NCBI RefSeq assembly: GCF_003334305.1
Contig: NZ_QOWS01000010.1
Strand: one strand, 5' to 3'
DNA: 64,000 nucleotides
DNA from: Escherichia coli
GTDB lineage: Bacteria > Pseudomonadota > Gammaproteobacteria > Enterobacterales > Enterobacteriaceae
Part shown: positions 36,887 through 60,183 of the stretch, piece by piece
How the letters are laid out: each line of letters begins with the position of its first letter
Numbering within the stretch: the stretch's first letter is position 1
The notes under the pieces: generated by a model
What the model saw: the letters and a program-made list of their open reading frames with translations, nothing else
The model's database searches: none
What the model was told of the DNA's origin: nothing
Translations under genes and position numbers: made by a program

Positions 36887-38083
36887 ATGAAAACCTGGAT
36901 ATTTATCTGTATGTCCATAGCAATGTTGCTATGGTTTTTAAGTACGCTAAGACGTAAACCCAGTCAAAAGAAAGGCTGTATTGACGCCATTATACCTGCG
37001 TATAACGAAGGCCCGTGTCTGGCGCAGTCACTGGATAATCTACTGCGTAACCCTTATTTTTGCCGGGTAATTTGCGTTAACGACGGCTCCACGGACAATA
37101 CCGAAGCGGTCATGGCGGAAGTCAAACGCAAATGGGGCGACCGCTTTGTTGCCGTCACGCAAAAAAATACCGGTAAAGGTGGTGCGCTGATGAATGGCCT
37201 CAATTATGCCACCTGCGACCAGGTTTTTTTAAGTGATGCCGACACCTATGTTCCGCCCGATCAAGACGGAATGGGCTATATGCTGGCAGAAATTGAGCGC
37301 GGTGCTGATGCCGTAGGCGGCATTCCCTCTACTGCGTTGAAAGGCGCGGGGCTGTTACCGCACATCCGCGCGACCGTAAAGTTGCCGATGATTGTTATGA
37401 AGCGCACGCTACAGCAGCTCCTGGGCGGCGCACCGTTTATTATCAGCGGTGCCTGCGGAATGTTCCGCACTGATGTATTGCGTAAGTTCGGTTTCTCAGA
37501 TCGTACTAAAGTCGAAGACCTTGATCTCACCTGGACATTAGTGGCAAACGGCTACCGTATTCGGCAGGCGAATCGCTGCATCGTATACCCACAGGAATGC
37601 AACAGCCCGCGTGAGGAGTGGCGTCGCTGGCGGCGTTGGATTGTGGGATACGCGGTCTGTATGCGCCTGCATAAAAGACTTTTATTTAGCCGCTTCGGTA
37701 TCTTCAGTATATTTCCTATGCTGTTGGTTGTGATTTATGGCGTTGGGATTTATCTCACTACCTGGTTTAATGAATTCATCACCACCGGGCCGCATGGTGT
37801 GGTGTTGGCAATGTTTCCGCTTATCTGGATCGGCGTAGTTTGTGTTATTGGTGCTTTTAGCGCCTGGTTTCATCGTTGCTGGTTGTTGGTGCCTTTAGCG
37901 CCGCTTTCCGTTGTGTATGTATTATTAGCTTATGCCATCTGGATTATTTATGGACTTATTGCCTTTTTTACTGGACGCGAACCTCAGCGCGACAAACCCA
38001 CCCGCTATTCCGCACTGGTGGAAGCGTCAACCGCTTATTCCCAACCTTCTGTCACAGGAACTGAAAAACTATCTGAAGCTTAA
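36887..38083 (+). CDS. yaiP: Membrane-anchored family 2 glycosyltransferase YaiP
   Basis: 398-aa ORF; N-terminal TM helix, GT2 core (IIPAYNEG, DAD), RRWRRW motif, several C-terminal hydrophobic helices. Confidence 0.85.
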   Translation: MKTWIFICMSIAMLLWFLSTLRRKPSQKKGCIDAIIPAYNEGPCLAQSLDNLLRNPYFCRVICVNDGSTDNTEAVMAEVKRKWGDRFVAVTQKNTGKGGALMNGLNYATCDQVFLSDADTYVPPDQDGMGYMLAEIERGADAVGGIPSTALKGAGLLPHIRATVKLPMIVMKRTLQQLLGGAPFIISGACGMFRTDVLRKFGFSDRTKVEDLDLTWTLVANGYRIRQANRCIVYPQECNSPREEWRRWRRWIVGYAVCMRLHKRLLFSRFGIFSIFPMLLVVIYGVGIYLTTWFNEFITTGPHGVVLAMFPLIWIGVVCVIGAFSAWFHRCWLLVPLAPLSVVYVLLAYAIWIIYGLIAFFTGREPQRDKPTRYSALVEASTAYSQPSVTGTEKLSEA

Positions 38084-38642
38084 TGTTAAAGAGAAAAATA
38101 TTCAGATTGCAGACCAGGTAATTATTGATGAAACTGCAGGTGAAGTTGTTATCGGCGCGAATACCCGTATTTGTCATGGTGCCGTTATTCAGGGTCCGGT
38201 AGTAATTGGCGCAAACTGCCTGATAGGTAATTATGCGTTTATTCGTCCTGGCACAATAATCAGCAATGGTGTAAAAATTGGTTTTGCCACCGAAATTAAA
38301 AATGCGGTTATTGAAGCGGAAGCAACGATTGGTCCGCAATGTTTTATTGCCGACTCGGTAGTTGCAAACCAGGCATATTTGGGCGCACAAGTACGTACCA
38401 GTAATCATCGTCTGGATGAACAGCCTGTGTCTGTTCGAACTCCAGAGGGAATTATCGCTACCGGATGCGATAAATTAGGTTGTTATATCGGGCAGCGTTC
38501 ACGCCTTGGCGTACAAGTTATAATTTTGCCTGGGCGAATTATTTCCCCGAACACGCAACTTGGCCCGCGCGTGATTGTAGAACGTAATTTACCTGCCGGA
38601 ACTTATTCACTCCGACAAGAACTTATCCGTACAGGAGATTAA
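37932..38642 (+). CDS. yaiX: Hexapeptide-repeat (left-handed beta-helix) acyl/acetyltransferase YaiX; start uncertain
   Basis: Repeated [LIV]GxxxxI hexapeptides (IGANTRICHGAVIQGPVVIGANCLIGNYAFIRPG...); frame overlaps yaiP 3' end by 152 nt and no ATG/GTG/TTG lies in frame downstream of the yaiP stop. Confidence 0.65.
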   Translation: MPSGLFMDLLPFLLDANLSATNPPAIPHWWKRQPLIPNLLSQELKNYLKLNVKEKNIQIADQVIIDETAGEVVIGANTRICHGAVIQGPVVIGANCLIGNYAFIRPGTIISNGVKIGFATEIKNAVIEAEATIGPQCFIADSVVANQAYLGAQVRTSNHRLDEQPVSVRTPEGIIATGCDKLGCYIGQRSRLGVQVIILPGRIISPNTQLGPRVIVERNLPAGTYSLRQELIRTGD

Positions 38643-38643
38643 A

Positions 38644-57835: not shown

Positions 57836-59017
57836 TCATGCCTCTTTGACCCACAGCTGCGGAAAACGTGCTGGTGCAAAACGCAGGGTTATAATCATCA
57901 GCCCAACGACGCACAGCGCATGAAATGCCCAGTCCATCAGGTAATTGCCGCTGATACTACGCAGCACGCCAGAAAACCACGGGGCAAGCCCGGCGATGAT
58001 AAAACCGATTCCCTGCATAAACGCCACCAGCTTGCCAGCAATAGCCGGTTGCACAGAGTGATCGAGCGCCAGCAGCAAACAGAGCGGAAACGCGCCGCCC
58101 AGACCTAACCCACACACCATCGCCCACAAGACCGGCAATTGCAGCGGCAACCAGATAAAGCCGCAGAACCCCACCAGTTGTAACACCAGCGCCAGCATTA
58201 ACAGTTTGCGCCGATCCTGATGGCGAGCCATAGCAGGCATCAGCAAAGCTCCTGCGGCTTGCCCAAGCGTCATCAATGCCAGCAAGGAACCGCTGTACTG
58301 CGCGCTGGCACCAATCTCAATATAGAAGGCGGGTAACCAGGCAATCAGGCTGGCGTAACCACCGTTAATCAGACCAAAGTAAACACCCAGCGTCCACGCG
58401 CGAGGAGTGAAAACCACGCGAACCGGAGTGGTTGTTGTCTTGTGGGAAGAGGCGACCTCGCGGGTGCTTTGCCACCACCAGGCAAAGAGCGCAACAACGG
58501 CAGGCAGCGCCCACCAGGCGAGTGTTTGATACCAGGTTTCGCTATGTTGAACTAACCAGGGTGTCAGGGCGGCACCAAGCCCACCGCCGCCCATCAGAGC
58601 CGCGGACCATAGCCCCATCACCAGTGGCGTGCGCTGCTGAAACCGCCGTTTAATCACCGAAGGCATCACCGCCTGGATGATGCCGATCCCCACCCCACCG
58701 AGCAGTGCGCTGCTAAGCAGCAGCGCACTTTGGGGGTAAAGCTCACGCATCAATGCACCGACGGCAATCAGCAACAAACTGATGGCGACGCTGCGACGTT
58801 CGCTGACATGCTGATGAAGCCAGCTTCCGGCCAGCGCCAGCCCGCCCATGGTAACCACCGGCAGAGCGGTCAACAGGGCAGCCACGCTAAAGCTCATTCC
58901 GCTCGCCTGGCGCAATTGCGGTAGCAGTGGCCCGACGGAGGTGAGCAGTGGTCGCATATTAAGACCAATCAGCACCAGAACCAGCAGTATCGTGAACGTC
59001 TTTTGATGGTTGCGCAT
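57836..59017 (-). CDS. cynX: Cyanate MFS transporter CynX; exact start uncertain
   Basis: 393-aa ORF from ATG 5 nt after cynS stop, no obvious SD; polytopic MFS-like protein. Confidence 0.85.
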   Translation of the reverse strand: MRNHQKTFTILLVLVLIGLNMRPLLTSVGPLLPQLRQASGMSFSVAALLTALPVVTMGGLALAGSWLHQHVSERRSVAISLLLIAVGALMRELYPQSALLLSSALLGGVGIGIIQAVMPSVIKRRFQQRTPLVMGLWSAALMGGGGLGAALTPWLVQHSETWYQTLAWWALPAVVALFAWWWQSTREVASSHKTTTTPVRVVFTPRAWTLGVYFGLINGGYASLIAWLPAFYIEIGASAQYSGSLLALMTLGQAAGALLMPAMARHQDRRKLLMLALVLQLVGFCGFIWLPLQLPVLWAMVCGLGLGGAFPLCLLLALDHSVQPAIAGKLVAFMQGIGFIIAGLAPWFSGVLRSISGNYLMDWAFHALCVVGLMIITLRFAPARFPQLWVKEA

Positions 59018-59022
59018 GGCTG

Positions 59023-59511
<489 letters not shown>

Positions 59512-59523
59512 TTAAAAATAAGG

Positions 59524-60183
59524 TTACGCTGCGGTCGGTTGGCGTAGCGGTATGGCACAAACGCGCGGATTAGCTGCCAGTGGCACAAACTGGCGGGTTG
59601 CGCCGTCAAACGCTGCGATGCTGCCGCTTTCAATGTCGTAGACCCAGCCGTGCAGGGCGATCCGCCCCTCTTCGAGCGCCAGGCGCACCGATGGATGAGT
59701 TTGCAAATTAGCCAACTGAGCAATGACGTTTTCACGTACCATCGCCGCAGCTTTTGACGGTAAATCGGAATGCGGGCGCGCCTCATTAACGACGCGGGCT
59801 GAATCGGCATAACGCAGCCAGTGGGAGACGGCAGGCATATGGTCCATGCACTGACAGCTGGCAATGGCGGTCATCGCGCCACAGTTGGAATGACCGCAAA
59901 TCACAATGTCAGATACCCGAAGCGCAGCGACGGCATACTCCACCGAAGCAGAAACGCCACCGGGTTCCGGCCCGTAGGAAGGGACGATATTGCCCGCGTT
60001 GCGAATAACGAACAGATCGCCAGGCTCACGTTGCGTCACCAGCTCAGGGACCAGACGGCTGTCGGAGCAGGAGATAAAAAGTGTGCGCGGGCTTTGCTGT
60101 GTCGCCAGCTGTTTAAACAAGGCTTCCCGCTTCGGAAATGCCTCGCGCTGGAATTTAAGGAATCCATCAATAATCTCTTTCAC
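59524..60183 (-). CDS. cynT: Carbonic anhydrase (beta class)
   Basis: 219-aa ORF with CxDxR and HxxCG motifs (SCSDSRL, GHSNCG). Confidence 0.95.

Follow-up and report, generated by a model that had tools for sequence, protein, structure and literature searches.

A likely cynX start codon without a Shine-Dalgarno sequence, five nucleotides past cynS in Escherichia coli, and the case for its coupling to cynS translation

The cynS-cynX junction

The sequence under study is a 64,000-nt stretch of one strand of Escherichia coli DNA, here called the window, in which the lac-cyn-cod region occupies 55.8-63.8 kb with the gene order lacY, lacA, cynX, cynS, cynT, cynR, codA and codB. On the minus strand, cynT (59524-60183) is followed by cynS (59023..59493), which encodes the 156-aa cyanase behind a Shine-Dalgarno (SD) sequence of its own (CAGGAG, -7.4 kcal/mol), and then by cynX (57836..59017); beyond cynT, cynR lies on the plus strand and is followed by codA and codB. 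Read from its first ATG, which we call ATG1 and from which codons are numbered, cynX is an ORF of 393 codons for an MFS transporter of the CynX/NimT type. This long form is 98% identical to proteins named cyanate transporter CynX, and its homologues carry precomputed PF07690 matches; by homology it belongs to the CynX/NimT (cyanate porter) family of the MFS, with an MFS_1 domain. CynX has been called putative (PMC6627978).

The initial annotation had described a cynS stop and a cynX start only 5 nt apart with no SD between them. Both statements are borne out. The junction, which spans exactly 59015-59025, reads CCG TTC TGA CAGCC ATG CGC AAC on the minus strand: the TGA of cynS (59023..59025) has a C as its next base, the 5-nt spacer CAGCC (59018..59022; CAACC or AAGCC in other Escherichia) contains no purine run, and ATG1, our proposed true start of cynX, is at 59015..59017. 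The same TGA-N5-ATG layout occurs in five exact 30-mer haplotypes that together account for 3,523 of the 4,259 E. coli genomes carrying the locus, the remaining genomes having other SNPs inside the 30-mer and so falling outside the haplotype count, and it was kept in all ten junctions that were read base by base. The arrangement is stable within E. coli. RefSeq places the cynX start at ATG1 (393 aa, WP_001244048) in a strain identical to the window over a 451-nt junction query.

SD strength was compared with that of the 54 annotated CDS of the matching 64-kb stretch of strain WCHEC020031, computed on that record's own sequence (NZ_CP033401.1), which matches the window at 99.6% identity over 30.5-63.9 kb and without a difference across the 451-nt query. 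The best duplex between the 3′ end of 16S rRNA (ACCUCCUUA) and positions -20..-4 relative to ATG1 has an energy of +0.7 kcal/mol. This is the second weakest value among the 54 CDS, whose median is -6.15 kcal/mol and only four of which pair at or above -2 kcal/mol, and no canonical SD lies 5-10 nt before ATG1. Elsewhere in this stretch, 11 of the 12 other tight or overlapping pairs (spacing of 12 nt or less) have an SD of -4.1 kcal/mol or better inside the upstream gene (sbcC, tauD, tauC, tauB, mhpE, mhpF, mhpD, mhpB, yaiO, yaiW and codA), the exception being an acetyltransferase gene whose annotated start is CTG. The missing SD at cynX is thus real and unusual for its neighbourhood. A search farther upstream gave a single strong SD-like run, GGAAGGTGG, which is inside cynS about 65 nt before ATG1 and too far away to act.

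Two features of the comparison stretch deserve separate mention. The acetyltransferase gene, at about 38063 on the plus strand downstream of yaiP (38062-38643 in its record), overlaps yaiP by 23 nt, lacks an SD (+1.5 kcal/mol) and is alone in the stretch in having a weaker start than cynX; its start call looks doubtful. In addition, the cyn region matches NZ_CP033401.1 almost perfectly, whereas window positions 1369-30122 match it at only 97.8% identity and with a 1,368-nt offset, and at 26-30.6 kb NZ_CP033401.1 carries an IS2 transposase and fragments of an autotransporter pseudogene. This pattern suggests a recombination or insertion difference between the halves of the window.

Conservation of ATG1 and of the reading frames that end there

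Downstream of ATG1, codons 2-9 (RNHQKTFT; 58991..59014) form a short basic N-terminal tail, codon 10 (58988..58990) is ATA (Ile) in the window, and codons 11-26 (LLVLVLIGLNMRPLLT; 58940..58987) make up the conserved core of the first transmembrane segment (TM1). Counted by exact 30-mers over the 4,259 complete E. coli genomes with the locus, 317 have ATA at codon 10 and 3,935 have ATG. Before codon 11 the frame contains no ATG, GTG or TTG other than ATG1, and the canonical in-frame candidates left downstream in the window strain are GTG15 and ATG21.

We examined comparison DNA from 10 loci obtained by exact-protein look-ups and from 28 species-representative loci obtained by a DNA-pattern scan anchored on the TM1 motif, the latter set being limited to loci with the exact motif. 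Across 25 sequences, pairwise variation in codons 11-26 at the three codon positions is 0.14, 0.00 and 0.44, that is, almost purely synonymous, and residues L11-N20 are invariant or nearly so across genera. Translation must therefore start at or before codon 11. An ATG stands exactly 12 codons before the TM1 motif, at the position of ATG1, in 23 of the 28 species. Orthologues from Yokenella, Trabulsiella, Hafnia, Citrobacter, Klebsiella, Salmonella and Pluralibacter are mostly 393-398 aa long, their N-termini being predictions, and have a 9-residue tail followed by conserved (M/T/I)LLVLVLIGLNMRPLLTS.

The eight tail codons (25 sequences, 200 codons) are of fixed length and contain no stops, with K or R at 39 of the 200 positions, D or E at one, and K or R at tail position 6 in 24 of the 25 sequences. 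A basic tail free of acidic residues fits the cytoplasmic, positive-inside tail that is typical of N-in membrane proteins. By codon position the tail varies by 0.49, 0.52 and 0.59, a weak periodicity, compared with 0.585, 0.594 and 0.63 in the 24 nt upstream, and it is thus nearly as variable as the flanking DNA. Codon 10 is likewise Met in 23 of the 28 species; it is ACG in a Klebsiella MAG and the K. variicola type, ATA in Pantoea coffeiphila and CTG in two Serratia. The cynX-like genes of Serratia share the TM1 motif and have a different N-terminal region (…LRRWFNPLLW…), with no Met at codon 10 and with a GTG start candidate 20 codons upstream that is preceded by CAGGAA.

The most informative loci are those in which no stop codon adjoins cynX, and here a strong SD precedes the long-form ATG. 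In Pluralibacter the gap between cynS and cynX is 57 nt and holds a hairpin with a T-run, followed by AAGGAG (taAGGAGagtttATG; -9.1 kcal/mol), and in Yersinia the sequence GAGAGGAA / GAGAGGAAtcaaccATG (-6.5 kcal/mol) stands before the long-form ATG, although Y. alsatica is nonetheless annotated with the short form. In no species compared is the better-placed SD at codon 10. The weakest ATG1 SD of all the species compared is that of E. coli. The Pluralibacter gergoviae hairpin (locus positions 1444-1500) is GC-rich, gagacgatacgc-aaag-gcgtatcgtctttttttg with the T-run and then the strong SD, and might act as a terminator or attenuator within the operon, uncoupling cynX from cynS.

Of 25 loci, 18 have an SD-bearing ORF whose end falls within -8 to +1 nt of ATG1, and the identity of this ORF differs between genera. 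It is cynS in E. coli, in E. whittamii (TGAaagccATG) and in Yokenella (TGATGgcgATG). In Hafnia, two species of Trabulsiella, two strains of C. amalonaticus, R. ornithinolytica and a Klebsiella MAG it is a 152-aa gene that overlaps ATG1 as ATGA or TAATG, and the same gene overlaps it in Salmonella and the K. variicola type. The product has a cytidine/deoxycytidylate-deaminase fold and is TadA-like, at a level far below the NCBIfam cut-offs. The deaminase-like gene is absent from E. coli. At the K. variicola-type locus it pairs with cynX beside a LysR gene, and no cynT or cynS was called in the 1.5-kb upstream flank.

A third arrangement is a short ORF of 18-42 codons with an SD of -4.1 to -7.4 kcal/mol, situated within the 60-130 nt upstream and ending in ATGA at ATG1. 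Such ORFs are carried by K. michiganensis, K. oxytoca, K. spallanzanii, R. terrigena, Enterobacter sp. 10-1, Enterobacter sp. JUb54, Raoultella sp. BIGb0138 and Y. frederiksenii. This amounts to 8 of 15 stand-alone loci against 0.94 expected from a shuffle control, the loci being phylogenetically non-independent, with about five lineages among the positives. The encoded peptides are not conserved; for example, the ORFs of K. michiganensis and K. oxytoca both have 18 codons and differ in sequence. Two of them, in JUb54 and BIGb0138, have DNA similarity to the deaminase-like gene and are demonstrably deletion remnants of it, as judged from this similarity. Such similarity was found for these two alone, and for the other short ORFs, the Klebsiella trio included, an origin from the deaminase-like gene is a possibility. 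Several of the other short ORFs begin with MSVH.. or MSSSHD.., resembling the deaminase-like gene.

Yersinia vastinensis has CTT in place of ATG at the ATG1 position (TM1 motif at 496-456, minus strand), and 31 codons upstream, in frame with cynX, an ATG has its own SD (-5.4 kcal/mol). The residues encoded from this ATG onwards, MSPSHNN, are similar to the N-termini of both the deaminase-like protein and the short-ORF peptide of Y. frederiksenii, which suggests that the N-terminal extension is a remnant fused to cynX.

Some loci lack an abutting ORF of substance. Apart from Pluralibacter, whose SD is strong, these are three Pseudocitrobacter loci, with a hairpin and a weak AAAGAA, and the loci of Pantoea and Erwinia, in which a one-codon ORF (ATG-TGA or ATG-TAA) overlaps ATG1 in the presence of a weak GAGAG. 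Since the Pseudocitrobacter, Pantoea and Erwinia sequences provide no strong SD and no sizeable ORF next to ATG1, coupling does not extend to the whole family.

How translation of cynX begins

Several features of the junction fit a translationally coupled start. In this model, a ribosome would terminate at the cynS UGA, 5 nt upstream of ATG1, the ribosome or its 30S subunit would stay on the mRNA and advance to the AUG, a step of 8 nt from the stop codon, and it would re-initiate there, with CynX synthesis tied to cynS translation and kept low. That ATG1 is the cynX start and is served mainly by termination-reinitiation after cynS is the account we prefer, and we hold it with moderate confidence. 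Both the use of ATG1 and its dependence on cynS translation are inferred. The initial annotation had raised such dependence as a possibility, and the proposal now has comparative support in the conserved position of ATG1 and the SD-bearing ORFs that abut it, alongside the lack of an SD and of RNA structure at the junction.

In silico, cynS and cynX are co-directional across a gap of 5 nt, as expected of genes that share one transcript and are closely spaced, and a consensus scan revealed no promoter- or terminator-like site near the junction. No structure that could sequester the start was found: the 131-nt junction folds worse than 186 of 200 shuffled versions (z = +1.3), the minimum free energy (MFE) of the region -20..+20 is -1.0 kcal/mol, with only three of the 54 starts less structured, and opening the start in a 120-nt context costs 10.4, equal to the median of 10.4 (rank 28 of 54). 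We therefore rejected a different form of coupling, in which translation of cynS would unfold a hairpin hiding the start. The form that we favour depends on proximity. A ribosome that terminates at the cynS UGA would have ATG1 within its footprint, and reinitiation is favoured because of this position, because the family keeps SD-bearing ORFs ending there, and because reinitiation is distance-dependent. In E. coli reporter pairs the loss of reinitiation is 5-70% at +2 nt and 80-100% at +38 nt, with coupling retained at +2, variable at +14 and mostly gone at +38 (PMC10666635). Coupling is most efficient at small spacing and is possible in vivo without an SD; the choice between 30S and 70S scanning is unsettled, RRF-depletion data speak against scanning, and the mechanism of coupling is disputed (PMC12548453). 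Two considerations count against coupling at this junction, namely that the optimal arrangement is a -4 or -1 overlap rather than a spacing of +5 nt, and that reinitiation without an SD is usually inefficient.

Alternatively, ATG1 might be used by free 30S subunits, through SD-independent initiation de novo in an unstructured, A/C-rich context and independently of cynS translation. We regard this as unlikely, yet as an explanation to be taken seriously. The region -20..+27 is 68% A+C and the immediate surroundings of ATG1 are nearly unstructured; genome-wide work in E. coli documents that initiation can find the correct sites in the absence of SD pairing (PMC7043885); and the Pseudocitrobacter, Pantoea and Erwinia loci have only weak SDs and no substantial abutting ORF. 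However, the opening energy of the start in its longer context is merely average, and on a translated mRNA termination and initiation cannot be independent, since the ribosome that finishes cynS covers ATG1. Moreover, the retention of SD-bearing ORFs that end on ATG1, far in excess of the shuffle expectation, is hard to explain if free subunits suffice.

The initial annotation also allowed for a true start farther downstream, which would be codon 10 in K-12-type strains and, in the window, ATA10, CTG11, CTG12 or GTG15/ATG21. This was a reasonable suggestion, as the K-12 annotation assumes codon 10: the reference cynX of K-12 starts 27 nt downstream and is nine residues shorter (384 aa, WP_000927953), a length that presumably also applies to UniProt P17583 (CynX). 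The short form is annotated in K-12 MG1655, PD4, SCU-109, STLIN_13, EC28 and others, and the long form in strains identical to the window, in BL21(DE3) and in strain 319. However, RefSeq/PGAP gives identical junction DNA two different starts, the long one in BL21(DE3) and strain 319 and the short one in K-12, PD4, STLIN_13 and EC28, and because identical DNA is annotated both ways its choice carries no evidential weight in either direction. Sequences of the window's type are always called long because their codon 10 is ATA, compared with ATG in K-12.

The conservation of a Met at codon 10 remains in favour of a downstream start, but codon 10 is ATA here and is ACG, ATA or CTG in other taxa with intact ORFs, no candidate is preceded by an SD (-0.9 to -2.8 kcal/mol), and a start at GTG15 or ATG21 would remove the invariant TM1 residues L11-N20. 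The strong SDs of Pluralibacter and Yersinia, as noted, serve the long-form ATG. Codon 10 is also 32 nt past the cynS stop, where most reinitiation would already have been lost, and given this steep dependence ATG1 (+5) is a far likelier target of reinitiation than codon 10 (+32). A downstream start is therefore highly improbable, and for the window strain the suggestion fails. That ATG1 is the start in the window strain is a conclusion in which we have high confidence, and the comparative sequences indicate that the 384-aa model of K-12 CynX is probably nine residues too short. Strains of the K-12 type may use both ATG1 and ATG10.

Less probable still is that cynX is little or not translated in the window lineage, the change of ATG to ATA at codon 10 having killed the real start and the juxtaposition with cynS being a by-product of deletion: cells can do without the cyn operon, the ATA allele, found in no more than 7% of genomes, could be a clonal, tolerated loss of function, and E. 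coli has the weakest ATG1 SD, but the 393-codon ORF is intact and closely matches other E. coli CynX, the same TGA-N5-ATG junction is kept in E. whittamii and Yokenella, and the comparative evidence favours ATG1 over codon 10 as the start of the family.

We found no start-site or N-terminal data on cynX in the literature searched, including the supplements of the TetRP (PMC4909307) and TRAINSPOTTER N-terminomics (PMC13245402) papers, as is expected because the operon is uninduced. The predicted tryptic N-terminal peptides that distinguish the two forms are very hydrophobic, namely TFT(M/I)LLVLVLIGLNMR after K for the long form and (f)MLLVLVLIGLNMR for the short form.

Origin of the junction and comparison with known systems

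The closest relatives of CynX outside Escherichia and Yokenella are those of Trabulsiella and Hafnia (73% identity), and these carry the deaminase-like gene; its loss in Escherichia and Yokenella is therefore the parsimonious assumption. Speculatively, the E. coli junction probably arose by loss of this gene, with cynS becoming the upstream partner of cynX. At four of five positions the spacer CAGCC of E. coli agrees with CAGTC, the five bases with which the deaminase-like gene ends before the ATG, a match that was picked post hoc and proves little.

A broader reading, which we advance tentatively and rate somewhat below an even chance, is that the CynX-family start is obligatorily dependent on coupling, that an ORF delivering ribosomes has been preserved before it through repeated gene loss, and that the cynS-cynX junction is one instance of a recurring partner swap. 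An ancestral TadA-like gene may have overlapped cynX by ATGA, and upon its decay an SD-bearing remnant or an ORF of 18-42 codons may have stayed open to the ATGA. Where the gene was excised, in Escherichia and Yokenella, cynS may have become the new partner, and in Y. vastinensis an ATG preceded by an SD may have come into frame with cynX.

The practical consequence is small, in that work on CynX expression, tagging and models of operon stoichiometry should use the ATG 5 nt past cynS. Beyond this, the cynX family is a natural series for the study of reinitiation without an SD, comprising full-gene overlap, overlap by a decayed short ORF, a +5 spacing and replacement by a strong SD, and it would also show how coupling constrains gene loss. 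Furthermore, the pairing of cynX with a deaminase-like gene, even where cynT and cynS are lacking, casts doubt on the label 'cyanate transporter'.

Among known systems, the nearest are the termination-reinitiation pairs of E. coli, classically trpE-trpD and trpB-trpA, together with the pairs hyfH-hyfI, ydbH-ynbE and menD-menH tested in PMC10666635 (reviewed in PMC12548453). Like these, cynS and cynX are co-directional genes, presumably on one transcript, with only a short gap from stop to start; no effective independent ribosome-binding site serves the downstream gene, although the unstructured start region could permit some SD-independent initiation, and the predicted distance dependence favours the nearest AUG. 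The differences are a spacing of +5 nt in place of the typical -4 or -1 overlap, and a cynS 3′ end without any SD, whereas 11 of the 12 other tight pairs of the stretch have one. Coupling by RNA unfolding (model A of PMC12548453) would likewise make cynX translation depend on cynS, but it differs in requiring an inhibitory structure that the junction does not have. Short upstream ORFs that deliver ribosomes are represented before cynX itself by those of the Klebsiella, Raoultella, Enterobacter and Yersinia relatives, each with its own SD and an ATGA; in E. coli the full-length enzyme gene cynS would take that role, and nothing indicates a role in stalling or attenuation. The 384-aa annotation of K-12 refers to the same gene and frame as the 393-aa form, with a start codon that is absent from the window strain. 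Hence the best reading of these sequences is that cynS-cynX is an ordinary operon-internal coupled start, slightly atypical in its +5 spacing, its lack of an SD and its lack of structure.
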